A DNA stretch of 64,000 nucleotides, from the NCBI GenBank assembly GCA_010015585.1, contig ML975149.1; one strand, 5' to 3'. Numbering within the stretch: the first letter of the stretch is position 1; the number at the start of each line of letters is the position of its first letter. The notes under the pieces were generated by a model. That model had not been told where the DNA came from. It made no database searches and saw only the letters and a program-made list of their open reading frames with translations. The DNA is from Eremomyces bilateralis CBS 781.70 (taxonomy: Eukaryota). Both the position numbers and the translations under genes were made by a program. Positions 941-32,755 of the stretch are shown in pieces.

Positions 941-1007
941 AGCGTTATGTGAAGCTTTTCACAATATCAACCTAGCAATCTGCAAAATTCAACAAAACAA
1001 AACAAAA

Positions 1008-1048
1008 ACATACAGCAATGGGAGTTCCCCTATGGTCTCCCAGCAGTA
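1008..1048 (-). pseudogene. 5S rRNA 3' fragment (~40 nt), interrupted
   Basis: ACATACAGCAATGGGAGTTCCCCTATGGTCTCCCAGCAGTA parallels 822 onwards and has an adjacent T-rich terminator on the minus strand. Similarity stops abruptly at about 1048. Confidence 0.8.
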
Positions 1049-1302
1049 TAAACGAGGCCGAAATCAGAGGGTCAATACCGCCAAAAGACGAGGGTCCGTC
1101 GAAAATACTCTCTCTGCAGCCATGGTAAGGATTGTAAAGAAGCTGTTTCTCCTTAGTTTTCCGGTCTCGCGCTCAGTCAGTCTTTTTCACAGTCTACAGT
1201 CCTCTCATTCAGTTCTAGTTTCATCGGTTCGGCGGTAGTCGACGCTATCAACGCTCCAAACAACAAAAGTTCTCTACGTCTATTCAAAGAAACGTCTTAA
1301 CA

Positions 1303-1992
1303 ATGGCGCTATGACGCTTTATTAGAAAGGGCGAAGCTAGAGAATAGGAGGCAAAGGAGCTTCTGGCTGGTTTCCAGAGCATTCCCCTCGACGTTACGGT
1401 CCCAGTGTCGGACAGAACTTCGTACAAGCGCGGCTACGCCATGAGGCTTTTCAAAGAGTACGGAACACTTGGATTTATCATGCTTATGACCTATACTCAT
1501 ATCCTCTAGATACGTTCGCGATGTCCTACACCGCGACCCGGACGATACCTGGTTATTCCTTTTCAGCTCTTCACCAGAAGAGGTAACTTTTGCTCAGGAT
1601 ATATGTCGTGCCTTTCTCCTGACCTATATCTCGGACTCATCGGTCTCCAGGGTTGTGTTGGGAGATCAAGGATCTGAGGAGGCCTAATACGTTACTCGAG
1701 TGTCAACCGTCCTGATACTCTGGAGAGCTCTCATGTAGGAAGGAGACGAAGCAGTCTTTGTACCCAAAAGAAGCGAAAACCAGCACACTCAAAACCAATG
1801 GACACTCGTAAACCCTAGTGGTAAACTAATTATAGGGCCAGTCTGGGAGGTTGCAAACGTAACGTCCGCCCTTCACTTATGTATAGAAGTATACTAACGT
1901 CACTGCAGTAGATTATCTACGATTTGCCTTCGCTCACTAGTACTTCTAATAGACTCTTGCGCCAAAAGCGGGCTACGACTGCTTAAGATGAT
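1303..1992 (+). pseudogene. Truncated, RIP-damaged N-terminus of a putative Starship captain (DUF3435-type tyrosine recombinase)
   Basis: ATG at 1303; introns about 1458-1509 and 1859-1908. Spliced frame: MAL*RFIRKGEARE*EAKELL...CRAFLLTYISDSSVSRVVLGDQGSEEA*YVTRVSTVLILWRALM*EGDEAVFVPKRSENQHTQNQWTL...GPVWEVAN*IIYDLPSL...QKRATTA*D. This resembles captain N-termini as I recall them; the catalytic region is absent. Confidence 0.65.
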
Positions 1993-2029
1993 AAATGTTC
2001 AGATATTGTAAAGAGCTTCGGACGGCCTT

Positions 2030-2262
2030 CTCATTTAGCGTCATCGGCCAGTAGTAGCTCGACCACCTTCTCATGGCCTCTATCACTGGCGGTTTGCAGC
2101 ACTGTGCCGTACGATCCGCCTTCCACGTCTATATCGGCACCGTGCGCCAGTAGCCGCTCGGCCACCTTCTCGTGGCCTCTATCGCTGGCGGCTTGCAAGC
2201 GCCGTGCCGTACTGTCCGTCTTGCACGTTCACGTCGGCGCTGTGCGCCAGCAGCCGCTCCAC
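2030..2262 (-). pseudogene. Ankyrin-repeat fragment (NACHT/NLR-ANK type)
   Basis: Minus strand: VERLLAHSADVNVQDGQYGT/ALQAASDRGHEKVAERLLAHGADIDVEGGSYGTVLQTASDRGHEKVVELLL, with one frameshift. Confidence 0.8.
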
Positions 2263-2714
2263 TGCATGTATCAAGCCCCCAAATGAAGCATAGTATAACG
2301 CTGAAGCTGGATCTCCGCTCTTAGTTGGCTTATTATTCTATGGCCAATCTGGCTGATAGAGGCTGTAACAGTTTCAATGGGACTGTGGGTAATGGCAGAA
2401 AAATTGTCCGACAAACTCTTGCAGTCTTTCGTCCTTGCTTTAGCCGCTACGGCGTGGCCTATCTAATATCTTGCGCCCTAGCGGCTGGTATGCAGCGTTC
2501 AACTATAAGTACAGGTGTTCCTGCCCTTCGCTTTCAGAAATCAAGCCGTTCCTGGTCAGAGCTGCTTCTTCTTCCGCCTAAGTACGGTAACCTCTCTACT
2601 AATAGTCTTTCTAGCTGTTCTGTGTCTATGTACTTGTCAGACCTTTCCTGCTCCTCCTCTGCTTCTGTTTACAAATTATCGCTCGTCTACGCTGTGTATT
2701 TGAGTACTGTGGAT

Positions 2715-4230
2715 AGACTGCCCGGAATTGCTCCAGGAGCCCTGCCCTGAGGATCATCTTCGCTGCTTGCACTGCCATTGACGAGCTACAGAGAATGCGC
2801 TTGATGTCTACGCATGGTTGCCTGCCTGACCACATTCGGTCTCGTTCGTCGGTCCAGTTTCAGCATTCAAGGAGAATGTGCCGCACCGTTTGCGGCCCGT
2901 GACCGCACTGGCATTGGTCGGTATCGGCCCTGTTGATGGCGTGGAGATACGCCGGGAGGCTGATCTTGCCCGTGCGCATCTGAGTGACCACTGAACTGAT
3001 TGCTCTGTGGGTTCCAATGCGTGTGTCGAGCGTCGCTTTCCCAGGCCGGACTCCGAGCTTGAAGAGCTCTCTACCATGCTTGGTCGTTTCCCACGATCTC
3101 GCCCATTCGCTTCTCATCGTTTGACGGATGGAAGATTTTGAGGTGGCTATTAAGGTCCGTAGAGAGTCTGGAGCCGGCGGAGGTTGGGGCCGTGTTGGCA
3201 CGTCCGAGTTGAAGCCCGCGGCTTCCTTTGCGGCTTGATCTGCTAATTCATTGCCTGGTACTCCGACATGTGCCGGGATCCATCGGAAATGCACATCCCA
3301 CCCGTGGCTATGGAGCGCGTCGAGTGCTTGTATGGCCTCGGCTAGGATATACTGACCCGACCAGTGCTTGAGGTTCCGTATGGCTTGGATGGCCGCCTGG
3401 TTGTCGGCGAATATGGTGCACTTGCCGGGGGTGATGACAGTCGTATGGATATCGAGCATCATTTGCAATGCTAACACCACTCCCCTGAGTTCAGCCGCGT
3501 ATACCGTGGACGTGGTGGATGTGCCCATGTATTCCGTCTGCCTCATGTGGATGCCACTTAACTGGAGCGTGGGTGCTACTGCGGCTGCACCGACGGGGCC
3601 GCTAATGCAGCTTCCGTCTGTGTAGATGCGTATCGTTCCTGGCTCTGTGGTATCGTGGTCCTTGATCGCTTCTTCAGCGGATTCGTTGATATTGATGACT
3701 GGTGGTGTCCACCACGGCGGGACGACGTGCGTTAGGCGTTTCTCGAGTCGCTCGAGCGAAACTTTGTACTTACGCTCTAAGATGCTCTAGAGTTGGTCAA
3801 GGGGCCCTGCGCGTTGTATCTTCGGCAGGTCCTCCCTGGGACGCCGTTGTTGTCCTCAGGTGCGGTCATGTCGTCGTACAGCGGGGTGGTTATGATGCGC
3901 ATTGTGGCTTCTAATGCTGTTTGTCCGAGTTGCAGTTGTGCAGGGAGCAGATGTGCTTCTATATCGACCGCTGCACCGGCCGTTGTGCGGAAGGCTCCAG
4001 TGATGGATTGGGCTGCTCGTCTCTGTATCCTCTTGATCGCAGGTACCATAGCGTTGCCTCGACCACCGCCAGGGGCGTGCCATGCCGAGCAGCCATAGAG
4101 CATCTGGGGGACGACCATTGCCCTGTCGTAGGTTGATGGTCCCCGTTCCCCACGTTGAAGAGGCCAGAGCCGACAGGGCGGAGAGGCGCTTCGTAACCCT
4201 TGTTTCTATCTCCTCGCGGTGGTAATCCCA
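2715..4230 (-). mobile_element. 5'-truncated non-LTR retrotransposon (Tad1-like LINE): RT C-terminus, RNase H, CCHC knuckle
   Basis: [81 protein letters not shown]; frameshifts and stops present. Confidence 0.92.
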
Positions 4231-4231
4231 C

Positions 4232-5333
4232 GCAAGCCTGGTGTCAAAGGCTCGACGACGGCACGGAATGGAATCCTCTCCTAATGACATGGCTCCTGGA
4301 AATCCGTTCGCGCGACAATGATCGGCCTCCACAAGACCGATCTCGAGACGATGAAGACTCTGCCCGTCGCATGCGTCTTGCTATTGCTGCCTTCCGCGCC
4401 CGCGCAGGTCTAGACGACAACTCCCCTGAACGGTCATCCGGAACGCCCACCGAGGGACCTTCCTCCCGCCGCACCCTTCGACCCTGCCTGGAACGACTAC
4501 GAAGCGGCCCGCCGGGACGAACTGGGCACATCGAACGGCGAACCAACCCACACATCCAATCCGACACCTTCTCTCCTAATGGTCCCACTTCCAACGGCAC
4601 CAAAAATAACAACACTCCACCCCCTCCCCGCTCTTCCGGCGCCACCTCAATCCAAATCGCCCCTCCCCCCGCCCCTCACCTCATCTCTTCCACCTCCTCC
4701 CCTCCCCCCCGCCCCACTCACAACCACCTCCCGCCCACGCAACCCACGCAACCGCTTCCCTTCCCCCCCCGCTCCCGCCGCGCCCAAGCCAGCGCCCTCC
4801 GCCACGACCAGCCTCGACCGCCTCCCCCTCCCCGAAGGGCGCCCCACCATCTATCCCGGCCCTCGAGTCATGGGCGACAGCCCGCGAATCCTAGGCGACG
4901 GACCCCTGAATTTTAGGTGATGGCAGGCTGATGGGTGATGGGCGGTTAATGGGCGTCGTGGCGTCCGTGCCGCCTAATATGTTTATTCCGAGGATGAGTG
5001 GGCATATACGGCAGAGTACCAGGGGAAGTGTAGCGGGGTTGAGGATCGTGGGGTTGGCGTGGAGTGAAGATTATGAGAGTATGGGGCGGGTTGAGCAGAT
5101 AGCGGAGGGAGAGCGGGGCGCGGAGTGAGTCGGTTGGGAAGGGTGGCGTGGGTAGGAGGGGGAAGATGGTGAATGGAGAGGTGGAAGATCGAGAGATGGA
5201 TGGAAAGGAGGAGAAGGAGAGGGATGCGGATAGGAGGAATGGGGTGCGGTTGTGGGTTGGGACAGAAGAGGGAATCTTCGAGATGAATGTGAACCTTGCG
5301 GCGAGGTGTTGGAATTCGTTGGTGGCGATTTGA
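4232..5333 (+). pseudogene. 3' fragment of a host-type gene, low-complexity, ending in a WD40-like blade
   Basis: Broken frames end in GLAWSEDY...LWVGTEEGIFEMNVNLAAR, resembling C-termini of fungal WD40/DUF2415-type proteins. No 5' part is present; the fragment abuts the LINE. Confidence 0.4.
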
Positions 5334-9879: not shown

Positions 9880-10035
9880 ATTGATAGTAAACAAGCAGTT
9901 GTAAGCTTCACGTGTGCCCAAGTTCGAGAAGATCGGCGGATATCAGTCGAAATATGATACTCGCGACGTCTTTACGGTCAAAGTACGTATGTATGCACCG
10001 GCTCCAAAGAATAAGTATAAGTAATCAAGAGCAGT

Positions 10036-10713: not shown

Positions 10714-12361
10714 ATGGCACATCTGCTGCTCTTCATCTTGAGCCTATCTATCGTCATTTATTCGACTTTTGCGGTTACTCTGGATGGATCGCTCTGTCTA
10801 GCCAAAGAACAGCCTGAGCTAACGCTAAATGAGATCGCGGTACGTTGCCCATTTGCTATTTTACTTACACGGATCTCCTGGATTCGACATCCCTTTATGT
10901 CAAGTTGGGATCTAGTGGACGTTGATCGAGCATGCGCAAAGCAGGGACAGCAGGCCCTTTTCGGCAATCTCGTGGCATACCATATCACGTCTGTGACCGT
11001 TCAAAAGCCGCCAAAGAAACAAAGTTCCCCGCGCCAGCGCGAGGAGAAAGTTCGCTTGCGCAGCCGGCTGGAGCGCCAGAGAGGTAGATGGAACTCGCAT
11101 CACCCACGATATCGCCTTCTTGACGCCATCTATGGCTTCTCACGCTATCAAGAGCAAAACGGAGTCGAACTCCGGCGATGGAAAACCTTATACAAGCATG
11201 TTTCTATACCACAGAAGGCAGTACGTCAGAACAATACAACAACGTAAACTGGACGCTCACTCATCGGGCTCACCCTACGCTAGATGCTTGAGCATGTAGT
11301 TTATTACTCAAAGAAGCTCGAAGCCACCGAACAGCTAATCCGGAAGAACCAGAATCTGTGCGACATGATTGTGCAGAATGCCCTACGGTTCTACGAAGTC
11401 AAGCAGATCGAGTTGGACCAGTTTATCAAAGACGCGGACACGAATAAACGGAAGGCAGATCGAACGAGTGTCTCGCAGGCGCTGAAACACTTCGTTCGTG
11501 ACTGGGCGAGCGACGGCGAGCATGAGCGAAAGGCTACGTTTCCATGTATTCTCCGAACACTGGGAACCTTATTTCCACAGCGAGCTGCAGAGCCAGGGAA
11601 ACACCAGCGGGTACTGATCCCCGGCGCTGGGCTTGGACGGCTGGGTTACGATATTGCGGCCCTTGGAGGTGAGTTTCCTTCTCCACTATGGGCTGCTGGA
11701 GGTGGCGACACTATTGATGTTCGCGACTAAAAATCCATGTCAGCCCGCATTGCTAATGCTATGACTAGGGTTCGACGTAACCATCAACGAATGGTCCATG
11801 TATATGAATGTCGCTTATCGCGTCCTCGAAACGGAGGAGGACCTCTCACCCTTCACCTTCCATCCTTTCATTGACTCCTGGTCACATCACGCTACTTCCG
11901 CCGACATGCAGCGCGCTGTATCCTTCCCCGACCGACCCCTCAACACTTCGTCCGTCGTCCTCGTCGAAGGCGACTTCACCACCGAATTTCAGACCGGACA
12001 CAGCGACTACGATGCCATCGTCACACACTTCTTCATCGATACGGCACGCAATCTGATGAGCTACCTCGAGACGATCCACCGCACCTTGCGACCGGGCGGC
12101 TACTGGATCAACTCGGGTCCGCTGCTGTACGGGAGTGGGCCGTTTGTGCAACTGTCCCTGGATGAAATCATCTTGTTGTCGGAGGCATTGGGATTTGAGT
12201 TTATTGAGACGAGTCCGAGGTGCGGCGAGGTCACGTTGTCAGGGAAAAAGGTGAGGTCGATGTCGGCAATATATGGGTCGAATGAGAGGGCACTGAACAT
12301 AAATGGATATAAGGTGCAGTTTTGGGTTGCGAGGAAGCGGTTAAGGAACGGAGATCGGTGA
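10714..12361 (+). CDS. N2227-like / carnosine N-methyltransferase (CARNMT1)-family SAM methyltransferase with hydrophobic N-terminus
   Basis: LKHFVRDWASDG..ER, VLIPGAGLGRL, NEWSMYM, HPFIDSWSH, EGDF, VTHFFIDTARN, GGYWINSGPLLY. Introns 11221-11283 and about 11669-11769; the 5' exon structure is uncertain. Confidence 0.88.
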
Positions 12362-13122
12362 TAGGCGAAGACACGGCCGATTTTACCTCGAAAAAACCAC
12401 TACTTCATATCGAGGCAAGGTATTGGACAGTACGCACTCCTATGGAGATATGTTGTATTGTCCGTATTCACAATAGCCAGGATCCTGAGATCGATTTCTA
12501 AATATGTGGTTCAGATACCGTACTATCCAGCGAATACCTCTAAGTCTATTGGTGTTTTGTCATGCTACAGAACACCGTCCATCCTATTACAGCTTAAGTA
12601 AATGTCCTGTCAGTAAAACCAATGACTTGCGCCTTTTCAAAAACCTGCCCAAGCGTCTCCTTGAATTTGCTATGGGCCGGATCATTATTGACGTAGTAAT
12701 CTCTATCCTCGACGCTCTTAAATTCCTCGACAAACGCATGCGTGATGCCATTCTACATGGTGCCTCTTGACGTTATCGATCCCCATTGGTACTGATTCCG
12801 AGAACCTGTTTACGGGCCTCCATCAGCTCCATTTGGGCACATCTAGAACCTTGTTGAAGTTGAATATTCCAGGTCTTCATTAAGTGAGGAGCCGGAATCT
12901 ATCTCAGGAATGATGAGGAGAACGAGCTATATACATACATAGGCTAGTCCCGGTTAGGAATGAATCACAATATGCATCACCTACTCTAACCAGACGATGA
13001 TGGTTGCTTCCAACAAACCCTTTGGTCACGCGTCGACGCGGTCGCCCGAATCCATCCTCGCACGCCTCTCAATAAATACCTCTCGCAGATCCGGGCGCTA
13101 GAGAACTATCATATATCGAATA

Positions 13123-14579
13123 AGTCAACGGACCCACTTTCCATGCAACCTAGATTCCGTGCACCCCTTGAGATAATACGTAGATACTTAGATCGCTTTT
13201 GATCAATGAAATAAATTCAACAACACCATCTAATATTATCAGGATGCCTCGTATTAATGAAGAGGCAGTCCAACAAGCTATTAATGCTTTTCATGGCCAA
13301 GAATTTGACTCGCTGAATAAATGTGCGGATGCGTACGGTATCAAGAGATCTACACTCCGGGACAGACTCAACGGCAACGATTCCCACCAAAATAGTTCGA
13401 AGAAACTTCAGAAGTTATCTCCCGTGTCCTCAGTGGCTCAAGAAGAAGTTTTTGCCAGAAAGCAAGCCCATGAACTCCCCGGCAGCGAACGGCGCGCAGG
13501 AATGCCGCCTATTAATATGCGATGGGCACGGCTCCCACGCCACGGTCGAGTTCATGAAGTTGGTCAAGGACAACCGCGTATTCTTTGTTGTTTTTGCCCC
13601 CCCATTGTTCCTACCTCCTCCAGCCCCTTGACGTCGCGTGTTTCTCGCCCCTAAAGTCCAAATATCATAAAGAGCTCTCCCAATTAGCATCATTAGATGA
13701 TTCCGCACCTGTAAAAAAGCATAATTTTATATATATATACTCTAAATCCCGAAAAGAAGCTTTGAATTCGTACAATATTCGTGCCAGCTTCCGTGGAACT
13801 GGAACGGTTCCGTTCAACCCAGACAAAGTATTAAATAGCACCCAATTAAACGAGAACCATCAAATACAACGTCATGTGACTCCAGAGCCGCAGTATACTT
13901 ATGTATTCCGTACGCCCAAAGGCCTCAAAGATATATACGATGCCAAATTAGACGAAATGGGGGGCCGGGATTTCAGGAGGTTTCAGGGGAAGGTCGCAAA
14001 GGCACTGGCAGAGAAGAACACGGAAACCGCCCGACTCAAAGCCGAACTTCAAAGGGCTGAAAATACAATTTCAGACTTAGGAGGGCTTGCTAGCAAGAAA
14101 AGGAAACGGGTTCAGCCCAATCTGAACGAACGATTTGTTCAGATTGACCAGATTGTTGCGGCTCAGGAGGCAGCTAGGGGAGAGGGAACATGTCGGAACT
14201 CCGCGGCTATTACTTAGTCACCGCCCCTTGTAGATTACATAAGATTACATAAGCCTGGGTATATATACCCGTCAAGGTAAACTATGTACTTCTGACCGAA
14301 TACAAGCATCTCACTGCCTCTGAACAGGTATCCTATTGTTTCCGTGATTGATTGACACGCCAAAACGATCAACAGAACAAAAGGCTGCAAAACGCCTTCA
14401 AATTAACCCGGAGGAAACGTCTTGATAATTGCAGAAGGCAATGTTTAAGTCACTCTATCCACAATTTCAATTACAGCTATAGAAAAATATATGGTGGTGG
14501 TTACATTCCGCAAAATCCATTCGTCTTTGTGTCCTATTGGAGTTGTGGTGGGGGTGCACGGAAACTGGGTCCGTTGACT
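13123..14579 (+). mobile_element. Fot1/pogo DNA transposon, internally deleted
   Basis: TIRs AGTCAACGGACCCA.TTTCC.TGCA at both ends, each flanked by TA. The HTH (ADAYGIKRSTLRDRL) is joined almost directly to LICDGHGSH and LQPLDV motifs, with frameshifts. Confidence 0.92.
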
Positions 14580-14777
14580 TAACCGCCACAAACATCCTTC
14601 GTGTCTGCAAGCTGCTTCTCAGGGGACGAGACGTAGACACCCAAAGAGTTCGCCAGTAACAACCTTACCGATATATGCCGCAATATAGCTGGCATATACA
14701 GCCATATGTTTCGCGGAATTCTTGTTACAATTCGCCAGGGGCCAGTAAGAGATGGGACTCTGGAGCTGTTACTCAAA

Positions 14778-15810: not shown

Positions 15811-16290
15811 ATGAGGTTCTACTCTAGCAGCACAAGAGACAACTTCCATGTACGTGGAGACAGGATGACTGATGAAGGGTTGCGGGACATGCTCTTGATG
15901 GATGTCTGAGAGTGTAGCGGGGACGGAGACTACGCCGAAGTTCCCTCTCAGACCCGCACAATAGTACTACGGGTTCTACGGCACTATTTCCTCTCCTGCA
16001 AATGTATGCTTGGGTCCAAGTTCCGACTCTCTATCCTTGTCCAATGTCTACCGTGCCTTGGAGTAAGGTAAGCTTCTTAATCTCTCATAGAGAGTGCCAG
16101 ACATTTGAAACCAGAGTTACGTAGACCACCCGTACCCCTTTTCATCCACTTCATCCAGCTCGGACCCCGCACCATTGGACGTTGAGCCATCCACTGCTCT
16201 AACAAGATGGTGTCCAGCGACCACATACGAGCAAAGACATTGAATCTGAGCATGCGCTGTTCAAAGCCAAAGTGACTAGAACTATTTAGC

Positions 16291-19174: not shown

Positions 19175-20223
19175 CTTTTTACGACGAAAGTTTGTCTCTT
19201 GGCCATTCCCGTGAGCTGGTATGTGTAGCGCAGAGTTATGTTGCCTATTCGCTGGATAGCATGGTGGTACAATCACATCCCTAGGAGAAGCAATCTCGGT
19301 AATCACCAAGATACGTATTTAGAAGTCAATTGGCCCAAGGTGGTTAACTAAGGCTAACTAAGTTAGTTAACTTAGGCACCTTAACTAATTAGTGTTTCTC
19401 CTCAAGCCAGACCTTGGTAAATGGTAAATGGTAATGCACAGTAGGCACTCCCCCAAGCCACATGTGGGGTAATTAGTGGGGATCGATTGGAGACTGGTCA
19501 GGAGTCAGGAGTACTCGGGACATCGAACTCCAACTAAAACCTTTTCCGGAACGGCTAATTATCGCGAACAAGAGTATTCAGCTCTCGATGGCAGCCGGAT
19601 CCGCCATCGATATTGAAGTTTGTTGCCCGTCACCAAACTGCTAGCATCGCTCATCAAGTATCCTACTGCTCCGTCCAGCTCCTCTGGCACCGTCAATCGT
19701 TTCAATGCATTGCCTCGGTGAAATACTCCTCTAGCGTATGGTCACTCGCTATTACCGATCACAACATCTTCGTTAAAAATGGCCTATGTCGGTATTAGTG
19801 CAGAACGTTCCCCGAAGATGGATGCATCGTGCCCAGGGCTGATACTGTTCACGCGAATTTTATACTGTGCCATCTCTGCAGCAGCCTGTCGGATCAGACA
19901 AAGAACCGCAGGCTTGGAGCAGACGTATGCTGTGGCAGTCCGAGGAAATACCGCTTTGTGTCCCGCCGTCGAGGATATACAGATGACATTGCCTCCAGTT
20001 TTTTGCTTAATCATATGTTCGGCGCAGATTTGTACCGTCGAGAGCATTCCGTTCACCTGCCCACCAGTCAATGAGAAAGGTCATCTCATTGCTGAAAAGA
20101 GGACTTACATTGACGGCGAACGAGGCGTTCATGTCGTCTACGGTGTGTTCCATGAATGGATTATCTACTATAATAGCTGCTGCTGCGATGCTTTGTCACT
20201 CAGATTGTGTTTGGAGACGACTA

Positions 20224-22063
20224 AGTTCGACCCCTGCCTTCCTGCGCAACCGACAAGCTGCGCACTTCCACCATTTCCAGCAAACCTCTTCCACGCTCTA
20301 TTTCTCCCCCAAAACGGATTAAATTTGAAATTCTACTAAGCAAGACGTAAAATCCCCTACAGTAATCTCCTTCGACCTTTTTTCCAGATCAGTTTCCGTG
20401 TTTTTACGTTGGTAATCTTCCTCCGCAACCACCGGCCTGGTCCTGAGCAGCCTTGATCTCCCTAATGCGTGCGAATCGATCATTCAGGTCTATCTGAAGC
20501 TTCTTTTTCCTTTTAGGTGCTAAAACTGCCTCAAGGTGTGTCTCCAAACTCGCGATTTTGGCATCGGATAACGCCTGGCGGGACTGAAGCAGTCTGATTG
20601 CCTTAGCCGCCTTGCCAAGAACCCTCTTCGTGCCTTTCGCGACGCGACTATGCTTCGATATTACCTTCAGAGCACTGTAAACCTGTTTAGGCTTGACAGG
20701 CGTGGAAAAAGGAGTCGTATGACGCGTTCCGGTAGCTGGTGCGAGCGGCGATGCGGGTGCTAAAAGTGATGGCGGCGGCGGGGGGACCGACCAGTTAACG
20801 AACCGGTTCTGGAGGCCCTTTTCAACGTCAAATGGAACCATGCCTGCAGCTCTCCAGCCTGATCGAATCGTACGGCTACAGAGCCGGTTTTCACGGGCTT
20901 TTGCGTACAATGAGACGAACTTCCTCCGTTTAATTGGTAGGGCCTCGGCGATATAGGCCGCGTTGCGAAGAAGGGTCTTGTCGAACCGCCTCAGTGGTGA
21001 GAAACAGGCGAGATCCAGTGGCTGTAAGATGTGGGAGGTATGGGCAGGTAGGAAGATCACCACCACCTTACTTATCTTGCATAAATAGAGGAAACCCACC
21101 GTGACATGGCTGCCGTGCCCGTCAAGCACCAAAATCCTATATTCCCCCTCCGTCGCGGTTTCCTTGAGGAATAGCTCGCGCAGCCACTTCACAGCGATGT
21201 TATTCGAGGTCCATCCGTTCGGTGACACGTCGTAAAACCAATTTGGCGCGTCTGACGGGAACCAGGAGCTCTGGATAGAAGCTCCTTTCTGGATCACGGC
21301 TGGGCTAAGCGCCCGCCCTGTCGCGGACACCGTTTCGATTACGGAGATCCATTCCCTATTTTCCTGGCCCACCAAGGTGGCGACCGCCTTCTGGGAGTCT
21401 GCGATAACCACAGAATTGGATCCTATCCCTAATCCTATGCCCACTTCATCCATATTATACGTATCGTCGGGGTGGACATCGTGCTCGACCACCGCCTTGT
21501 GAAAATGGTCGTAAAACCGTCGAATGTTTTCCTCCATTGCGGCATGGTGGCGAACAGCATCTAAATTCTTGCCTAAGCAGGCTTTGACGCGTGGATTTCG
21601 GTGAAGGAAGCGAGGAATCCAATTCTTCCCAAAGGGGCTCTGGTCGGCCTGGAGGTCAAGGACTCGCGCAGCCATTTCCCGTACACGGGCGTGGGTAGGG
21701 GGAAATCCTTGAGCATCCGACTCAAGGATCCAGTCTGTTAAACAGGTCTCTTGATCCGGTGTAAGGCGTTGATTGCCCTGTTGGGCGATAGACCGTGAAG
21801 CAGAGCCTTTTAGGCGAAGGCGTAGGGTAGATTCGCTAACTTCAAAGAGCCGGGCGGCATCTCGAATTGAGTTAGCCTCGCCATCAGCAAAAGCACGTAA
21901 GGCACCTGATATCCGTTCATTGTGAGATGCCATATTAGGAAATAAAATTTATTATATAAATAACGCGTGTCTGGGGGGTTTTAACGCGTCTTGGATGGCG
22001 GTGGTCCAAAAGATGGTTGGTGGGTGCACAGGAAGGCAGGGGTTGAAGTTGAACCGTTGAACT
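20224..22063 (-). mobile_element. Fot1/pogo DNA transposon, near full length (1840 bp)
   Basis: Inverted ends AGTTC...ACCCCTGCCTTCCTG.GCA flanked by TA on both sides; contains a 509-aa transposase ORF. Confidence 0.9.
20404..21933 (-). CDS. Fot1/pogo DDE_1 transposase
   Basis: HTH-psq and CENP-B-like HTH regions; NMDEVG, SPNGWTSN, LVLDGHGSH, HTSHILQPLD. The extreme C-terminus may be frameshifted. Confidence 0.92.
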   Translation of the reverse strand: MASHNERISGALRAFADGEANSIRDAARLFEVSESTLRLRLKGSASRSIAQQGNQRLTPDQETCLTDWILESDAQGFPPTHARVREMAARVLDLQADQSPFGKNWIPRFLHRNPRVKACLGKNLDAVRHHAAMEENIRRFYDHFHKAVVEHDVHPDDTYNMDEVGIGLGIGSNSVVIADSQKAVATLVGQENREWISVIETVSATGRALSPAVIQKGASIQSSWFPSDAPNWFYDVSPNGWTSNNIAVKWLRELFLKETATEGEYRILVLDGHGSHVTVGFLYLCKISKVVVIFLPAHTSHILQPLDLACFSPLRRFDKTLLRNAAYIAEALPIKRRKFVSLYAKARENRLCSRTIRSGWRAAGMVPFDVEKGLQNRFVNWSVPPPPPSLLAPASPLAPATGTRHTTPFSTPVKPKQVYSALKVISKHSRVAKGTKRVLGKAAKAIRLLQSRQALSDAKIASLETHLEAVLAPKRKKKLQIDLNDRFARIREIKAAQDQAGGCGGRLPT

Positions 22064-22931: not shown

Positions 22932-23951
22932 ATGGCTGCCAAATCCGAAACTGCCGTCCCAAGAAACGCAGATTCATATCTCCATAACAATGTTTTCGAC
23001 CTCTTCTCTCTAAAGGACCGCGTTGTCATAATCACGGGCGGTGCTAGGGGGATTGGACTGGCTCTTGGGTTTGCCGTTGCAGAAGCTGGGGGATCCGTTG
23101 CGATCATCGATGCGGCGCCGCAACCCCACGAGCATTACAAAAAACTGCAAGAAATATGCAAGGCTGAGTTCTATCAGTGCGTTCTCAAAAAGATCAGCAC
23201 GCCATAGTCCCAGAGGCATGCTAACATGTCTTCTTTTTTCAGATCAGATGTGACCGATTATGAGAAACTGCAGGCAACCTTTGATAAGATTGTCGAGGAT
23301 TTTGGACGAATAGACGGCCTGTATGGGATGTCAGGTCTCAATAAAGCGTCAAGCTGACCAGGCTTTCAGTATCACGGCGGCAGGCGTATGCCCCGACCAG
23401 GCCTTCTTAGATCGAGATCCGAAAGACGTGGAGCGCACCTTCAAGATCAACGTCTTCGGCACCTACTTTGCAACTCAGTTGGCTGCGAGACAGATGGTGA
23501 AGCAGGGGAGGCGAAGTGCAGCTCCAACGTCAGGCGCTGGATCGGTTGTCCACATTGCCTCCGTCTCTGCACATGAAGCCCCCAAACTCCAGCTGACGAG
23601 CGATTACTCTTCGAGCAAGGGTGCAGTCCTTGGTCTGACGCATCAGCTTGGATCGGAGCTGGCAAGTATGGGTGTAAGGGTGAATAGTATCTCCCCAGGG
23701 TAAGTTCTCTTTCTGGTATAACCGTTGGCCCACAGTCGCTAATCGTCAGTAGATACATCTTGACGGATATGAGTATGGCCCTTCTCGAGCAAAGGAAGGA
23801 TGTAGGCGAGGTGTTTGTAAACGCGCCAGCCATGAAACGGATGGGGGACCGCACCGACTTGAAAGGGGCTGCGGTTTACCTGCTAAGCGACGCCAGCGCG
23901 TACATGACTGGTAGTGAGATGCTCATTACCGGAGGTTTGCACGTCACGTAG
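22932..23951 (+). CDS. Short-chain dehydrogenase/reductase (sorbose reductase/polyol dehydrogenase-like)
   Basis: [44 protein letters not shown]; three introns. Confidence 0.9.
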
Positions 23952-25299
23952 AAGCGTTGAGAAAGTAATATCCTTCTCTCTTCGATATCTGAAACAAAAG
24001 CTTGAATTGGCATTGCGTATCTTCGTATTCTGTCGTATGTGAGAGGTGACTATACGCCCCCTGCCTAGCGCGAGCTTGATACCTGTGGATGTGAGGCGCG
24101 GTTTCAGATGCGTGTTGACGGTTTTGTTCCTCCGCTGGAGTTCCACAAGGGTGTGCCGTTCTTCTGCCGACCACATGCATTTACGCATTGTGTGAGGGGG
24201 AAGAGAGGGGGTGGGTGGCGCTAGAGACTGGCCCATTGAGCGGCACTTCGAGTTTGCCATCGATCAGTGGAACATGGCAGTCGCAAGTGCATCTTGCTAC
24301 ACCATAGCATCAGGCGAACATCGTAAGCTATGCTATGCATGTTTATGTAGCAGAACTCAGTCAGATTTGGGCGTCGCGCAGATTCTTGCTCTATCCACTG
24401 TTCCCATGTTAAACCGTTAAAACCGGGGCTCGCGGGCTAGTGATTCTCCGCCGCAAGACCAATGTCGCGAAGGCAATGAACGAGCGACTGTCTAAGGGCA
24501 AATGATTGCTGGAGCAAGTCGACGAATTTCCAGGTGGCGTACCCAACCAAGATCGGTAAAGTCTTGATGGTGTCGAGCGGAGCCCACGGGCCATATCGTG
24601 CAGATGGCACATCTTCTCTCGGAGAGAACTTGTACGGGCGGATCAAGGAACGAACCTGCGGCCCAAAGCTCGTTTCTTCGCGTCTCTAGCTCGAAAAGAC
24701 GATTGAATTTGCTGCGTTGAAAGTGCTGATTGCTTCATTCTCTGCGGGAGCAGAGGGCAGCCAAGTGCTGAATGGAGTACCAATACCATTGGCATCGAGC
24801 ATATCTGTACCCTGGGAGTCGCGAACACTGCCAGCGGCATCCGAATCAGTGCCAGGACTAGGAGACCAGCGGGTGGGAAGGCTCACCCCGTCCATAAAGT
24901 TTAGAAACTTCAAGAAGACTGCGCTACGAACCCATCTTCTGCACGAAACCCGTCGCTGACGGGGACGTCGACAGCCGGTCCACGCCGGGCTCTTCCAAGT
25001 GATGATACTTCGTCGTTCCCATGTTTATAGATCCGCCGATGCTGAGTAAGGAGGTCACGGCGAGAGAAGGTGGTTCCACAATCGCATTCAAACGGTCTTT
25101 CCTTGGTATCTGCAGAAAGACATCAGCCGAACTGATAGAGATAGGAGAGAACAATATTGATTGGAATGAATGTGGCATGTTCATGGATTTAATTATTATC
25201 ACTGACGTATTCTAAGATGCCTCGTCAGGTGTTCTGTACGCTTGAAATGGCGTTGGCAGTAGCTGCAAGATTTTCCATGTCTCGATCAGAGGTATGCAT

Positions 25300-25627
25300 C
25301 AGGCGGTTGCATATATTGTTACATTGCTTGGCGTGCAACTGGCAAAAAAACTGCCAAATTTGAGTAATAACGACTTTTGCAATCCAAAACCACCAAAACC
25401 TACCAAAATCTACCAATATCAAGTTTCCTTAATTGCCGCTTACCACAAGAACTAATTATAATAAAAATAATATCGTTCAATAGCTTGGAACTTGGCGGAT
25501 TTAATGATATTATTTTTATTAAATTAGAAAACGTTCGAAATATTCGATTGCAAAAGTCGTTACTCAAATTTGGCAGTTTTTTTGCGAGTTGTACGCCAAG
25601 CAATGTAACAATATATGCAACCGCCTG
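25300..25627. mobile_element. MITE-like element with ~82-bp terminal inverted repeats
   Basis: CAGGCGGTTGCATATATTGTTACATTGCTTGGCGT...GACTTTTGCAATC is mirrored at about 25546-25627; AT-rich non-coding core. Confidence 0.85.
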
Positions 25628-26299
25628 ATTGGGCACTTCGCTAAAGCTAGACGTGCCCAGGGAGTCAATTGAATGCTGCTACCTGTACTATACGGAGTCC
25701 GATCAGCCAAATCACCCCAAATCCTAGCAGCTCCAGCAGCAAAACGACCAGATTGAACTAATAATGCACATGATGATCCGCAGAAAAGCCAAGGTAAGAG
25801 GTCATTTTAGAATATGGAAACTAAATAAACGTTCTACACTATTACCGAACGCCTGAACGTCAGAAGCAGAAAACGCTTTCGACAGGTAAATATTGAGAGT
25901 TGAGATAAGAGTTGCATTTGCTGATGTTCCAGCTAGGTGTCTGTGGATAGGGAGAACTATATGTATGCAGTGGCTGGGACGCAGGTCCCATGACCCCCTC
26001 CACAGTGCAAACCCCGCTGGCATATCCGGAGTGCCGCCTGACAACTGATAAGTAGCAGAGCTGTGGACATTCTTCGCTCAGCCGAACTCTGACCTGAATT
26101 GGCGACAATTCTTGGGTGATACACGTCGATGTTCATTGGTATTGGGCATTTGGGCTTTGCCGCATAAGCGACGTGCTAACTATCAATATTCACGCGCAGT
26201 TGCAGCTTCGACAGGATGCTACCCGGCAGCAAGCAAAGCCTCGTATGCGGTCTTGGAATCGATGCATCTCAGCATTGATATTTCTCCAGTCAAATGTGG

Positions 26300-27840
26300 A
26301 TTGCCATGCATGGCCGGCATCAAGAATCTTTTGCTACTGCCACAGTCCACTCACCAATTGCATCCCAACAGGCGGCTGGATCGCATGGTTGTCCTTTGCT
26401 GGCAAGGAGCCGATGGGAATGGTCATGGCCGGATGTCCCGTAATGTTGAAGATTGCAGTGTTGATGGAAAGGCCTACGCTAGGCTTCAAAGCCTTCAGGG
26501 GCGATTCCCCTTGTCTCCCGTCCACATGCTTCGGCGCGACGCACGGCGTCGTGGGCATGACAACCATATCGTACGTCTTGAAAAGCTTCTCATACGAGTC
26601 TGTGAGCAGCTGCGCTAGGTTAAGGGTCTTTGCGTAGAGACCAGGAAAGTTCTTCGCCAGGTACAGTCCGTTGATCATCGTATTCATCGTTGCGGGAAAT
26701 AGCCGCTGGAAGCTGGCATTAGTCCAAGGGAGGCGCGCTTCTTCAAATTCCGTAGGATACAAACCCCTTCGCCCGTGCTGAAGCCCCAAAAGGTTAAAGG
26801 CTCCTGGGATGTGTTGCTGAATCGCCCAAACAGCCGGCCCCTCCATATGGCACGGTACCGAGACCTGCTCGACGATGGCTCCGAGCGTCTCGAACCTGCG
26901 TGCAGCGCGCATGACGAGGTCCTTGATTGGGGGACCAACCAGCTGGTGCTCGAATCCTTCCACCAGTATCCCAACCATGAAGCCTGTGGCGCCGCTCAAC
27001 GTAGGGCGTAGAGACTCGGTAAAGGAGGCCGAGCCACGAGGCGGTGCTCCGAGTATACGGTCATCAAGCTTATCCTATCCGCTAAGCGCTCCAACATGAT
27101 GCTACTTCCAATACTGTCCTTGCGATCGGTCGGGCATAGTCGTTGACTACATCGCCGCTCGTGATGCCGGTGTAGGGAACCAAGCCAAGCGTTGGTTTAG
27201 TCCAACATCTGGCAAGTTTGTTAGCCAAAGGTCTCTGCTTCAATTTGCAGCATTGACGTACAACCACAGAATGCCGCTGGAATTCCGATACTCCCACCTT
27301 AGTCTGCACCAATCGCAATGTGAACATGACCTGCCCCGACCAAGGCTGCGCCGCCGGAGGTGCTGCCACCAGAAGAATAGCCTTCTGCAAGGGGATTCTC
27401 TACGACGCGCTGGGCGCTTGTAAAGGACCAAGTCGAATTACCGAAGTTCTCGCAAGTAGCAGTGCCTACTACCTCTGCACCCGTGTCCAATGCTCGCGTG
27501 ATAACGATCGCATCCCTTTGCGGAGTCCATGGAGCAAACGCGTTGGTTCCAAAGAACTGCAGCACTCCCGCTACTACGATGCAGTCTTTCAGGCAAACGG
27601 ACTTTCCCTTCAGCGGTCCACCGCTTGGGTTGCCTCTGATGTGGAATACTTGGGCCTAGGCATGTCTGAGGACATTTTCCTTATCTGACGGACGGTAAAT
27701 ATTTCCTCGAGGGTATTCTGGCGAGTCGGAGGGCCTTTGGTAATCTGACAGCCGACGGATCTTCTCTGCACAATCATGAACGGCAGCTAAAACAGCTGGC
27801 GATAGTCTCCGGACTCTTCTAGAGTTATGCCATCATTGAT
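26300..27840 (-). pseudogene. Amidase-signature family enzyme, pseudogene
   Basis: LKDCIVVAG, YSSGGSTSG, IGAD*GGSIGIPA, KPTLGLVPYTG, NTAIFNITGHPAMTIP, PVGMQLV; stops and several frameshifts. Confidence 0.85.
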
Positions 27841-29002
27841 GCTAATTGATGCTAGAAGCAACTTGGGCTTTTCGATCGCTATTAGGCTAGTGCTACGTGA
27901 GGTAAGCATTCAAGCTCTGTAGATTCGATTCTTATCTTCACATACTCTAAGGGAGAATTGAAGAAGACCGACATGTTCCGTCGGAAGTGTGTGGCCGTCG
28001 GAAGTGTATGTGGTTGATAGGCCGACTAGCTGGCAGACGTCTCGATTTCTCAGCCTCTGAATGGTGGATCTAGCGATAGAGTAAGCCTCATTACATAGTA
28101 GCCTCCTAGTCATCGGCGCTTTGCTGCTGAACGTGGTGAATCTTTCCTTATGGATAGGATCTGGCAGGAATTTGAAGAGGCTATCAACGCGATGCTCGAT
28201 AGGATAGTATAATTTTTATCTCGCTACGGTATCTCAATGGCATCTCAAAATAATTGAGATCCTGTTGAGTATTGACTGGGTACGTCAACGTGCTTTGGTT
28301 CTGCCCCTAGCGGCCCCTCATGGCCTAAAGTTTGGAGAACCCCATAAGATCCTCCCCAAACAACCCCAACTACTAACGTCAACTAACTAACTAAGTTAGA
28401 TAAACGGTATTTTCAGGCCCAAGAGGGTCAGGACAATACTGTAGATGGGAAGATCAGATCTGGGGTTTTCTTTAGAACATTGTACCAAGCAAAGCCGCGT
28501 GCAATAGTAATTCTTACATACTTATCCATATTACCAATACATTTCGGGAGCGAAACGCCCTTTATCGGATATGCTGCAAAGAGGTGTGATATGAGATACC
28601 CTGGAACGTCCAGGGTTTCGCGCCATTCTTCAGCCCACTACTACTCCACCCAACCGTGCAGTGAACTCTCCAGGTGTTGGCAAGGGAATCACAGAGCCCG
28701 GCAACGGGTTGGAGTCCCATTGGGTAGTAGATAAGTTTTGCGTCTGCCTACTACCAGCTTGACTAGCCAGAGATCCAATTATCCTGCACTCACTAACCGA
28801 GCCATCACCTGCAAACCTGCCATTAGTGTCATGGAATGACGATGGGGGGAAATGCTATCTGCGGGGCCTCCGTAGAGTTTCTGGCCCAGCAAAATATATC
28901 TACAGTTCCCCATTCTGCCCTTTGGGCTGACCTCAACACCGATTGCTTTACGTATTCTTTCGGAATATATTGTCTCAGCTGTATCGAACCAGGTCATTCG
29001 CA

Positions 29003-30061
29003 ATGGGGAAGAAGCGAGTTCTCATCTCGTACGGTGTCGATGTTGATGCGGTTGCGGGATGGCTGGGCTCGTACGGGGGAGAGGACAGCACAAACGACAT
29101 AAGTCGAGGAATCTTTGCCGGAACTGTGGGCACGGAGCGTCTGCTTAGGATGTTTGCAAAGTATAACATTCTGACGACGTGGTTCATTCCTGGGCACAGT
29201 TTGGAGACCTTTCCGGAGGAGATGGCGGCGGTTCGAGACGCCGGTCACGAGATTGGACTGCATGGATATAGCCATGAGAACCCCAAGGACATGACTATCG
29301 AGCAACAGCGAGCAGTGCTGGATAAGACGTATCGAATGCTGACGGATTTTGCCGGAAAGCCTCCCCGAGGAAGCGTGGCGCCGTGGTGCGTCTTGTTTCA
29401 GTCCACCGCCGCACCGCAGCCACTGACCAGACTATTTTAGGTGGGAAACAAGCAAAGAGGGGGCCGAGCTACTACTCTCATATGGTATCGAGTACGATCA
29501 CAGCTTGAGCCATCATGACTGTCAGGCTTATTACCTTCGCACTGGAGATTCCTGGACCAAGATTGACTACTCCAAGAAGGCCGAGGAATGGATGAAGCCA
29601 TTGGTCAAAGGCCAGGAGACTGGCCTTGTAGAGATTCCTGGGAACTGGTACATCGATGATCTCCCCCCAATGATGTTTATCAAAGCCTCGCCCAACAGCC
29701 ACGGCTTCGTCAATGCTCGAGACGTCGAAGATATTTGGCGAGATCATTTCGACTACTTTTACCGCGAGTACGACGAGTTCATCTTCCCCATATCGATCCA
29801 CCCTGATGTGTCTGGCCGGCCCCACGTCATTGCTATGCATGAGAGGTACGTTATTCATTACCGCACCAGAGAACACAACCAAGCATTCTAGCAATCTGAC
29901 ATCGCAATCGCAATCGCAGACTCATTGAGCATTTCAAGAAGCACGAAGGGGTCGAGTTTGTTACCATGGAGCAGATGTCGGACGAATTCAAGAAGCGGAA
30001 TCCTCCTCCGCCGGGAACACTCATGCCCGCAGCTCCTGGTGCAATGCTTGCAAAGAAGTAA
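29003..30061 (+). CDS. NodB/polysaccharide-deacetylase-fold hydrolase (HpPgdA/HxnM-like, putative cyclic imide hydrolase)
   Basis: [67 protein letters not shown]; introns about 29386-29440 and 29846-29919. Confidence 0.9.
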
Positions 30062-30740
30062 AGAGAGAGACGGCTGTAAGTAAAACCTTATCACGAGATT
30101 TAGGAATAGTAATGCATAAGCATATGCACATTTTGCATCCGGTGCTGAATATCTACCGAAGATGGGCTCCATCTGCGTCCAATCACATTGGTAGCGGCGC
30201 TACGGTATAGGTGCAGCAGAAGTGGAGTTTGGTATTGCCTAGATGTGCTGTTCGCATAATTAGTGAGGGTCAGGGTTGAGGGTTGGCAAGATAACCCAAG
30301 CCTGATAGTAGAGTATGTCCCCACTTGCGTCAACATAGAGTGCGGGATCTCCGCAGCTACAGGGTTCAGTATGTCCGCGCTTGCGTCGACATTGAACATA
30401 GAGTGTGGGGACTCCGAAGAAATTTATGGATTCCATACCCTTAAGTATAGCCTATCCTAGGCTCTTAGGCGCCCAGGCAATCTGTACCGCCGAAGATAAT
30501 ACGAGTTTAATCCTAGGCGCTCAGGCTGCCAAATCAGTACGTAGGAGCCTAAGCCAGCGCCCATAAATTAGGCTCCCGAATACCATCGTACAAGCTCTAC
30601 ATATAGCCTATATCTCCGTAATCAATCAGCTTTTCACGAGGGGTTTTCATTTTAAAAGTTAAGGTATTTATCGAGTCAAAGATCAATTCATCTTCAAACA
30701 GAAATCCACCTAAATAGTTTAAGTTTACCTCAGTCAGTCG

Positions 30741-30851
30741 TTATCAGTCGTAGATAAACTCAGGTAACGTGGCGTGGCCTTAGCAGGGGCCCCCAGCCCC
30801 CTATCTGACCACTCACCATCTTAGATAACGTCTGAGCATCAACTGAGATAA
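30741..30851. promoter_or_regulatory. Cluster of five HGATAR sites (putative AreA/NIT2 nitrogen control)
   Basis: TTATCA 30741, AGATAA 30752, CTATCT 30801, AGATAA 30823, AGATAA 30846, about 200-320 bp upstream of the permease ATG. Confidence 0.5.
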
Positions 30852-31060
30852 CTCCAAACCGGTTCTAACATACCCCAAATGGGTCCATGATCCTTGAATA
30901 TCCTCGGAATCTATTCCGTAGGCACAACGCTGTCCCGACGACATGTATCTGGTCTTCGTGATTAGGCCTCGACATATAAAGCGCATGGCGTAGGCCCACT
31001 AGCCTCGAGCGGTTTGTTAATCAGTATTTCTACTTGTTTTCCCATCTGTTTCCTACCAAT

Positions 31061-32590
31061 ATGTCGGGTGAGAAGCGTTCCATCGATATGAAGTCTGTTA
31101 CGGTAGAAAGTTATGAGGGAGTCGTTAAAGATGAGGCTGCTACAGACAATTTCGAGGTGTTCAAGAAGGAGGAGGGAGCCGTCGATTTTCGAACGGTCTC
31201 GTGGATTCACGCAGCAATGATATTCACAAAAAGTGAGTGGTAGACGTCGAGTCGACTCCTGTGTTGCTGCTCTAAGGAAGCAGATGCTGACAACGTCTTC
31301 TCGCAGTGATCTTCGCAACCGGTGTCTTGAGCATTCCGTCTGCTTTGTATACTCTTGGCGCAGCTCCCGGGGCCATTTGTATCATAGGATTTGTGTCCTT
31401 GAATTCCTACTGTGGGTTCTTACTGGGCGAGTTTCGGAATATTCATCCTGGATGCCATAGCGTTGCAGACATGGCTCAGCTCATCGGCGGTAAAGTTCTC
31501 AGAGAGATCATCGGCGGTATCTTCCTCCTGTCGTTCGTCGTCTCCGCTGCCACTGGAGTCTTGGGCGTGTCCGTCGCACTGAACGCACTTTCGAACCATG
31601 CTATCTGTACCAACTACTTTTTGGTCGTTGCAACAATTGCTATCGCAGCCGCTGCGAGTGTGCGCAAGTTCGAAAAGTTTGCCTGGCTTACCTGGGCCGG
31701 ATTCTTCTCCATATTTATTGCGATCTTCATCGTTGTGTAAGTGAACGGCTCAAGCAATATGGAGACACGACCACTGGCCCTAACGAATCTATAGTGTTGG
31801 AGTGACGACTCTGGACCGCCCTGCAGCTGCACCACAGACAGGAGACTTCGAGTTGGGGTATCATGCCATCGCACATCCTACCTTCGCTGCCGGCATTACC
31901 GCAGCGGCTACGATCTTCGGTACCAGCGCAGCGCCACCTGCATTCCTTCCGGTCATTTCAGAAATGAAGCGACCTAAGGACTTCAACAAGGCTTTGTTGG
32001 TATGCATGATCTTTGTCGTCTCCTCATACCTAGCTTTTAGCCTGGTCGTATATCGGTGGTGCGGTCAATGGGTTGCGTCGCCGTCTCTGGGCAGTGCCGG
32101 CCCTGTCCTGAAAAAGGTGGCTTTCGGTGTCGGTTTGTTCGGACTTTTAATCAGTGCGGCGCTGTACGTCCACGTTGCTGCGAAGTATATATTCGTTCGA
32201 ATTCTTCGCAACACAGACCATCTACAGAGGAACACCTTTGTTCACTGGGGGGTGTGGATGGGCTGTACGCTGGGGCTCTCCATCATTAGCTTCCTGATCG
32301 CCTCGGGTATCCCAATCTTCGACTACATTGTCGGTCTTGCGGGCAGCTTGTGCTTTGCGCCCTTGGCAACGGGTTTCCCGGCGATGCTTTGGCTTTACGA
32401 CTATGGCGATTATCGAAAGGGCACCATCATCCACAAGGCGCAATTTGGAGTGCACATCTTGATGGCGGCATTTGCTCTATTCCTGACTATCGGCGGCACG
32501 TATGGAGTCGTCCAGCAGATCATACTCGCGTATGAAACTGGCAAGATCAGTTCGGCATTCCCTTGCGCTGACAACAGCAACTCTTCTTGA
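31061..32590 (+). CDS. Amino acid/auxin permease (Aa_trans, Mtr-like neutral amino acid transporter)
   Basis: VDFRTVSW, FATGVLSIP, HPGCHSVADMA, FLPVISEMKRPKDF, VASPSLGSAG, FPCADNSNS; two introns; many TM segments. Confidence 0.92.
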
Positions 32591-32722
32591 TCTTCTGGCG
32601 CGATCCATTTTGTCTTGGTGACGACGACGTTGTAGAACTGGAATCAAATTTGATTATCAGAATTAATAGGAATGGTAGAACTATTTGCAACGCTCCTCCT
32701 TAATCATTATCTATCATCCCTA

Positions 32723-32755
32723 ATGCCATCGATTTAGGTTAATGTGGCCGTATGT
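32723..32755 (-). pseudogene. 5S rRNA 5' fragment (~33 nt) with upstream flank
   Basis: ATGCCATCGATTTAGGTTAATGTGGCCGTATGT aligns without gaps to ATGCCCTATATTCAGGTTGATGTGGCCGTATGT (908-940). The flank GAAGCCTTTG...ATATAAAC resembles the flanks of the other copies. Confidence 0.7.

Follow-up and report, generated by a model that had tools for sequence, protein, structure and literature searches.

We analysed a 64,000-nt stretch of contig ML975149.1 (assembly GCA_010015585.1) of Eremomyces bilateralis CBS 781.70, hereafter the window. With moderate confidence, we interpret part of it as a degraded Starship of the Arwing family located at a cluster of 5S rRNA genes. In this interpretation, the left 2 kb would be the dead captain end of the element and the block behind it would be its probable cargo. 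The left end is well supported, the right limit is placed somewhere from 32.6 to 34.9 kb, and the cargo is unproven. The unusual point is that, as far as sequence comparison can tell, pieces of the 5S target travel with the captain.

The captain pseudogene

A captain-like pseudogene was found at the left end of the block, next to a fragment of a 5S rRNA gene. The features on which the interpretation depends are:

701–731, minus strand: 5S 5' stub A, positions 1–14 exact, an 8-nt insertion, then positions 15–23 (blastn 15/15)
821–940, minus strand: intact 5S rRNA gene (Rfam), with the Arwing-type core GACGGGA (5S positions 39 to 33) at 902–908
941–1006, minus strand: 66-nt spacer from fragment L to the intact 5S, containing the upstream flank of the intact 5S
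1007–1048, minus strand: 5S 3' fragment L, positions 77–120, 36/44 columns identical, with a 2-nt deletion and 6 mismatches
1049–1302, plus strand: 254-bp leader from the 5S fragment to the captain ATG, homologous to the DNA upstream of P0060 and P0015
1303–1989, plus strand: captain pseudogene, codons 1–195 only, in the pieces 1303–1461, 1511–1858 and 1912–1989
32723–32755, minus strand: 5S 5' stub B, positions 1–33, 28/33 identical (blastn E 1e-3), candidate right junction
34217–34237, minus strand: 5S 5' stub C, positions 3–23, 18/21 identical, with a promoter-like flank

The relic starts at 1303, 255 bp beyond 1048, and faces inward as the first gene. The translation of 1490–1897, with stops written as X, was compared by phmmer with 1.84 billion representative proteins and gave 58 hits at E ≤ 1e-3, led by P0002 (793 amino acids, E 7.6e-49, 73% identity). 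P0002 and the rest of its 90% cluster are named proteins of E. bilateralis CBS 781.70, and a word search for nearer captain relatives among longer proteins returned this cluster only. Across the surviving part, the relic was approximately 74% identical to this intact captain. Residues 1–53, 53–168 and 170–195 of P0002 mapped to the three pieces of the relic (tblastn, 65–79% identical), which contained five in-frame stops and were separated by two gaps of intron size. Pfam was run on 15 of the 58 phmmer hits, namely P0003 and 14 of the 15 hits with a length of at least 300 amino acids, and PF11917 (DUF3435) was present in 10 of the proteins scanned, in P0002 at residues 195–492. The inward captain-like pseudogene of the initial annotation was thereby confirmed as a DUF3435 homologue by phmmer, tblastn and the Pfam result for P0002.

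Captain residues 196–793, including the whole PF11917 region, were not found in the window by tblastn with 15 proteins, and neither P0002 nor the 14 other relatives detected a second captain piece anywhere in it. The surviving fraction is the first quarter (25%), and the relic stops approximately 40 bp short of the 3' end of an ankyrin relic in the opposite orientation. Because the captain is truncated ahead of its catalytic domain, the element can neither excise nor move itself. The captain lineage occupies several loci: P0002, P0060, P0061 and P0015 lie on four different E. bilateralis contigs. Tblastn alignments at the left end of the block spanned 908–1858 for P0060 and 1226–1455 for P0015.

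The captain piece bears the signature of repeat-induced point mutation (RIP). For 1053–1990, TpA/ApT was 1.33 and (CpA+TpG)/(ApC+GpT) was 0.80, the usual RIP thresholds being above 0.89 and below 1.03, respectively. The composite index was positive there and negative in every other named region tested; among 2-kb steps, only 1–2000, which contains the captain piece, approached zero (−0.01). Opposite four of the five captain stops, P0002 has Q or R, and a single C-to-T change would account for each of these four (TAG/TAA from CAG/CAA; TGA from CGA); the fifth requires two transitions. RIP probably inactivated the captain piece while the family was multi-copy.

The 5S rRNA gene and its pieces

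Pieces of 5S were located with blastn, using the intact 5S of the window with 150-nt flanks as the query, and were then aligned pairwise. The only complete 5S in the window was the minus-strand copy at 821–940 (Rfam RF00001, 85.2 bits against a gathering cutoff of 38, positions 1–120). This copy, 66 nt from fragment L, and stubs A and C had been missed by the initial annotation, which had reported fragment L and, on the same strand, stub B with its upstream flank; both of these are real. The short pieces are supported by blastn and by pairwise alignments with the intact 5S of the window: the Rfam model reported neither stubs A and B nor fragment L even at E up to 10 (700–1300 and 32500–33000 scanned), nor stub C at the gathering threshold. 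The intact 5S, fragment L and stubs A, B and C make five pieces on one strand. The upstream flanks of the three stubs are promoter-like and each resembles the flank of the intact 5S (at 733–755 for stub A and up to approximately 32800 for stub B). The four incomplete pieces are truncated at positions 23 (A and C, in both cases after CCTGAA), 33 (B) and 77 (L). Pseudogenes made of the 5' half of 5S are a subject of older work, and a literature search on truncated 5S pseudogenes in Aspergillus yielded no usable comparison.

Three further candidates were rejected. A 13-nt match at 15960–15972 had an E of 0.32 and flanks without similarity to those of the 5S, a degenerate 5S past 1048 reached a best local score of 7 that was equalled by 73% of shuffles, and in view of this result the motif GACGAGGG at 1089–1096, although spaced as in 5S, was dropped as chance.

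The surroundings of stub C (34168–34232) matched two further contigs of the source genome over that interval only; stub C plus approximately 45 nt is thus a dispersed repeat. Close to stub A, the following feature abuts the left edge of the window:

1–630, no strand: palindrome, foldback or MITE-like (miniature inverted-repeat transposable element), ending 70 nt (631–700) before stub A

Its two arms (1–630 against 630–1) were 87.6% identical over 646 columns by self-blastn, and it may be the terminus of a different element, one responsible for breaking the 5S copy of stub A.

5S pieces shared with a sister captain

The gene model of the sister captain P0060 (P152DRAFT_510855) opens with a 113-residue N-terminal extension that is translated upstream DNA and aligns with window positions 908–1302. 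The extension begins MPYIQVDVA, the antisense of 5S positions 33 to 7, and continues into the spacer, where the residues QSAKFNKTK... match the translation of 976–1007. Before the spacer, the tblastn alignment has a gap of 17 residues, which we attribute to the removal, as an intron, of a 41-nt GTATGT...TAG stretch from the gene model. Beyond it, spacer, TYSNGSSPMVSQ and leader follow one another as in the window. Fragment L translates to TYSNGSSPMVSQ, and the window's intact 5S in the same frame to TYSNRSSHVVTH. The P0060 locus and the window have five derived residues, a frame-keeping 2-nt deletion and the joint between L and the leader in common. A single ancestral copy thus appears to have given rise to fragment L, to the spacer and to no less than 33 nt of the adjoining 5S. 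Since the P0060 locus carries the same derived L and joint, L would have been inherited with the element rather than made at the window locus. Three ways to explain the shared pieces remain: they lie inside the mobile unit, a duplication included the flanks, or the element sat within a larger carrier.

The annotated N-terminus of P0060 (residues 1–113) is an artefact, the true start being MAPRRT.... Users of the annotation should be aware that a sister captain's gene model opens with translated antisense 5S. The comparison also provides a useful correction, namely that the 5S fragment beside the captain was apparently inherited with the element. It raises the question of whether some 5S-targeting Starships carry 5S and thereby repair or multiply their own target.

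The right limit of the block

Stub B ends at 5S position 33, between GGGC (28–31) and CCCG (34–37), in the middle of the GGGCAT/CCCG core. This core is not repeated at the right junction, where 32716–32722 reads ATCCCTA and GACGGGA would be expected, and a repeat search in 32500–34950 found nothing marking a boundary.

The window was compared with sequencing runs of the probable source sample (X1 and X2) and of one relative (X3), both X3 records being less than 90% identical to it. X1 contigs with 20–74 differences covered 30961–32530, and the permease paralogue 386610, 88% identical, is present elsewhere in the E. bilateralis genome; another X1 contig, considered below, continues past stub B. 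The DNA on both sides of stub B thus seems to be duplicated together elsewhere. Contig depth hinted at second copies for 30–34.7 kb; the pieces and joints of the contigs were used here, and depth was not. No E. bilateralis deacetylase paralogue was among the matches listed in a search restricted to proteins of at least 297 amino acids.

X3 shared nearly no sampled words with the window, and its longest aligned piece was approximately 83% identical. A single 61-kb X3 contig was collinear with the window between the ZIP transporter (34917) and TOM20 (49172). The permease (31151–32366) was on the other X3 record and not on the ZIP contig. X3 had no cover at 30001–31150, 32367–34916 and 38253–41337, and no absence is inferred for these intervals. 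From these alignments, the break in collinearity appears to fall between 32.4 and 34.9 kb, an interval containing stubs B and C, and the DNA at 34917–38252 is host DNA outside the element. The first genes of this host block are:

34917–38252, plus strand: ZIP transporter and NAD-binding protein, the first genes collinear with the RPN1–TOM20 block (X3 contig, Pfam)

Core genes had been thought to start only after about 40 kb; collinearity with the relative of the RPN1–RIO2 block begins at approximately 34.9 kb, at the ZIP gene. Just upstream of the start of this alignment, a perfect 17-nt tandem duplication was observed at 34832–34865.

In the degraded Starship that we propose, the 5S pieces (L and the spacer together with the first part of the intact 5S) would belong to the copied unit and not be the local half of a split gene. 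The 31–33 kb to their right would most simply be cargo leftovers plus later transposon insertions, and the block would end between 32.6 and 34.9 kb, where collinearity with X3 starts, with stub B as one candidate far junction. The locus itself would be a small same-strand 5S cluster with a history of repeated hits, and this would account for the stubs at 701–731 and 34217–34237.

The initial annotation had instead proposed a single immobilised Starship of approximately 32 kb inserted into one 5S, the halves of which (1007–1048 and 32723–32755) lost some nucleotides from between them to later trimming. The order and strand of the halves fit this proposal, as does a captain located 255 bp inside the left fragment and facing inward, and both fragments are approximately 85% identical to the intact 5S, suggesting a similar age. 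However, L recurs at another locus, upstream of P0060, with the same derived residues, deletion and joint, and the homology upstream of P0060 is indicated, from the translated gene model, to run past 1048. Positions 34–76 of the 5S (approximately 43 nt, close to the 45 nt originally given as absent) are missing between L and stub B, no direct or inverted repeats link the two ends, and second-copy contigs align on both sides of stub B. The agreement in strand weighs little, since all five 5S pieces lie on one strand. We therefore consider a 5S gene split in place to be highly improbable. What stands of the earlier proposal is the dead, inward-facing captain end with a transposon-rich, non-collinear block behind it; the extent of 32 kb is less well supported.

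Another alternative is a Starship that restores its target. Its captain end would start inside the intact 5S at GACGGGA (902–908) and carry positions 1–33 with the promoter. Integration at the GGGCAT/CCCG core would then have rebuilt 821–940 and left the 33-nt stub at 32723–32755, L being an older internal scar. We regard this scenario as unlikely, although several observations agree with it. Segment 821–908 (positions 120 to 33) and stub B (33 to 1) are complementary with no bases missing. The truncation of stub B falls midway in the CCCG/GGGC core of Arwing (PMC11162782). The Arwing-family (fam09) element fuscul1_s05160 has the direct repeat tcccgtc, which equals 5S positions 33–39 of the window, an agreement that would count if the Fusarium site lies in a 5S gene. 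The homology with the P0060 locus extends at least to 5S position 33. On the other hand, the right junction lacks the core, the reach of the P0060 homology is fixed only by the start of a gene model, and a second genomic copy spanning stub B argues against an element–host junction there. A literature search found no paper on a Starship restoring its 5S target, and the published view is that 5S-targeting Starships break the copy that they hit. If the scenario were true, the strategy would be that of bacterial integrative elements that target tRNA genes, and Starships could, by seeding additional 5S copies, generate hotspots for themselves.

The truncation points also bear on a composite origin, in which a tandem 5S cluster received several Starships or other insertions and later deletions joined what was left of them, so that the left end and stub B stem from different events. 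The four truncated pieces have three different endpoints (23, 23, 33 and 77), in Aspergillus fumigatus, 5S clusters have been reported that hold several Starships, one of which is degraded (PMC12153272), and 34168–34232 around stub C recurs in two other contigs. However, the window contains no second captain remnant, and no internal 5S fragment was found as a boundary, the sole extra match being the rejected 13 nt at 15960. We give such an origin a low probability.

The block behind the captain

The proposed cargo region of the degraded Arwing-family Starship (2–33 kb) contains the following features:

2031–2337, minus strand: ankyrin-repeat relic (Pfam Ank, E 2.1e-8), frameshifted, with an internal 114-nt tandem duplication (self-blastn)
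2863–4380, minus strand: 3' part of a non-LTR (long terminal repeat) retrotransposon (Pfam RNase_H, E 5.5e-15, on the open reading frame 2863–3786)
11284–12358, plus strand: carnosine N-methyltransferase-like gene in two open reading frames (Pfam CARME, E 8.5e-17 and 4.7e-37)
13121–14581, plus strand: Fot1/pogo-like transposon, decayed and internally shortened (DDE_1 fragments; 30-nt inverted terminal repeats, 90%)
16966–19104, minus strand: C2H2 and Zn2Cys6 transcription factor (Pfam), two open reading frames in one frame with a single stop (17716–17718) between them
20223–22050, minus strand: Fot1/pogo-like transposon with an open 514-codon transposase frame (DDE_1, E 2.3e-28; HTH_Tnp_Tc5; 34-nt inverted terminal repeats, 82%)
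23886–25122, minus strand: C2H2/fungal transcription-factor fragments, weak
25298–25629, no strand: MITE-like palindrome, AT-rich, 332 bp (self-blastn 74% over 345 columns; GC 0.34)
26337–27655, minus strand: amidase gene in two open reading frames (Pfam Amidase, E 4.3e-14 and 3.1e-21)
29003–30058, plus strand: polysaccharide deacetylase gene, NodB-type (tblastn: three exon-like blocks, no stops against P0188)
31088–32587, plus strand: amino-acid permease gene, three exons, apparently intact (99–100% identical to E. bilateralis P152DRAFT_387626)

The ankyrin relic, the long interspersed nuclear element (LINE, the non-LTR retrotransposon), the two Fot1 elements and the MITE were all present as first described. 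Pfam detected no reverse-transcriptase domain in the non-LTR element. The Pfam scan comprised 114 open reading frames (ORFs) of at least 90 amino acids and 136 of the 215 ORFs of 55–89 amino acids, the other 79 lying inside assigned genes. The block also holds two weak Kre9/KNH-like ORFs (below the Pfam cutoff), an alpha/beta hydrolase piece and short-chain dehydrogenases. The fragments at 23886–25122 resemble a decayed second copy of the regulator at 16966–19104.

Homologues of the deacetylase were 80–91% identical across several ascomycete classes and 84–86% identical in the basidiomycete Mycena. In Plenodomus lindquistii, Verticillium dahliae and V. albo-atrum, the locus tags of deacetylase and permease are adjacent, and in Monosporascus the two form one fused model. 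The pair may be a small metabolic cluster that is either highly conserved or spread horizontally. In Periconia, the deacetylase is fused or adjacent to an amidase.

These observations bear on the alternative that only approximately 1–2 kb are Starship-derived, the body having been deleted, and that 2–34.7 kb are ordinary lineage-specific, transposon-invaded DNA that has no relation to the captain and includes a segmental deacetylase–permease duplicate. The captain is cut at codon 195, approximately 40 bp from the 3' end of the opposite ankyrin relic; RIP is confined to 1053–1990; and auxiliary Starship genes were not found in the scanned ORFs. Deacetylase and permease are also neighbours in other fungi, and their pairing therefore needs no Starship. 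However, the X3 permease is not beside the ZIP gene on the same contig, old Starship cargo is typically dense in transposons and contains disrupted genes, and a 5S stub lies at the right place and on the right strand. We judge so small a remnant to be unlikely.

Several results weigh against the degraded Starship that we favour over these alternatives. Pfam gave no DUF3435 hit on the ORFs of the captain relic, the catalytic domain of which is gone. The Pfam-scanned ORFs contained none of the auxiliary genes of Starships (DUF3723, patatin, ferric reductase or NACHT), the RIP mark is limited to the captain piece, and nothing links the cargo to the captain. Direct or inverted repeats were not found, and alignments of 1040–1310 with four candidate ends scored no better than shuffles. 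One second-copy contig of source run X1 aligns up to 32612 and again from 32841, and thus continues past stub B. The upstream DNA of a sister captain was seen at one locus only, as a translated gene model starting at 5S position 33, and the comparison for an empty site covered the source sample and one relative that is less than 90% identical.

Family assignment and comparison with known Starships

The proteins erebil1_347678 (P0002) and erebil1_510855 (P0060) are listed as fam09 in Table S4 of PMC11162782, and family number 9 is Arwing in Table 1 of the same paper (Gluck-Thaler & Vogan 2024). The same numbering is seen in the reference captains given there, with Voyager as fam10, Enterprise as fam06 and Phoenix as fam01. 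The fam09 label of the relic is a proxy taken from its nearest relatives, the relic itself being without the domains used in that classification. Table S3 of PMC11162782 places E. bilateralis recombinases on scaffolds 9, 1 and 6, with 510855 (P0060) at scaffold_1:2372446 and 347678 (P0002) at scaffold_9:802643; 455447 and 513402 are further sister captains, and neither of the two scaffold 1 recombinases in that paper is the window relic. For erebil1, recombinases are listed there with an element count of 0. The window would thus add one more case from a little-sampled Dothideomycete in which a starfish survey gave recombinases and no elements. The 5S-targeting Starships, the 5S-rich hotspots and degraded copies are already in print (PMC9156397, PMC11162782, PMC12153272).

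Most sites of Enterprise, Arwing and Voyager are in 5S rDNA, the Arwing core being CCCG/GGGC (PMC11162782). The window resembles Arwing in that the nearest intact captains are fam09, the captain is the first gene and faces inward, and the setting is 5S. It differs in that 25% of the captain is left, without direct or inverted repeats or an available empty site, and in that position 77, rather than the core, is where the 5S fragment next to the captain stops.

With Voyager and other 5S-targeting Starships, such as Osiris of Aspergillus fumigatus, the window shares insertion into, and fragmentation of, 5S genes. Voyager of Macrophomina phaseolina cuts 20 bp from the 5S start (PMC9156397), and the endpoint of stubs A and C (23) is near this published cut. 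As judged from the Voyager direct repeat GCCCTGTATTCT, the element strand is opposite to the 5S strand in both. In contrast, the Voyager captain belongs to fam10, and the stubs in the window end at 23 (A and C) and 33 (B). No fam10 recombinase is among those E. bilateralis rows of PMC11162782 that were examined. Hotspots of 5S copies with several Starships, one of them degraded, have been described in A. fumigatus (PMC12153272), and the multiple 5S copies and degraded elements reported for 5S-targeting Starships are matched in the window. The papers on these Starships predict loss of the 5S that is hit, whereas in the window the captain end has an intact 5S next to it.

Genes for tRNA are the integration sites of certain bacterial integrative elements, which bring along a replacement segment for the gene. 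A likeness to them exists only if the Starship restored its target: part of an RNA-gene target would be carried by the element and rebuilt on integration. The window differs from these systems in that its element is eukaryotic, its far junction lacks a repeat of the core, and the evidence is indirect.

Other observations in the window

Two observations concern the DNA to the right of the block. At 48141–48342, several contigs of the source run pile up, showing numerous small indels and loose ends to either side, which suggests a dispersed repeat of approximately 200 bp between RIO2 and TOM20. At 62497–63999, an open frame that extends in the direction of the window's right end has a PIF1-like helicase domain (E 9.4e-28) and may represent either a helicase of the host or a portion of a Helitron-like element.

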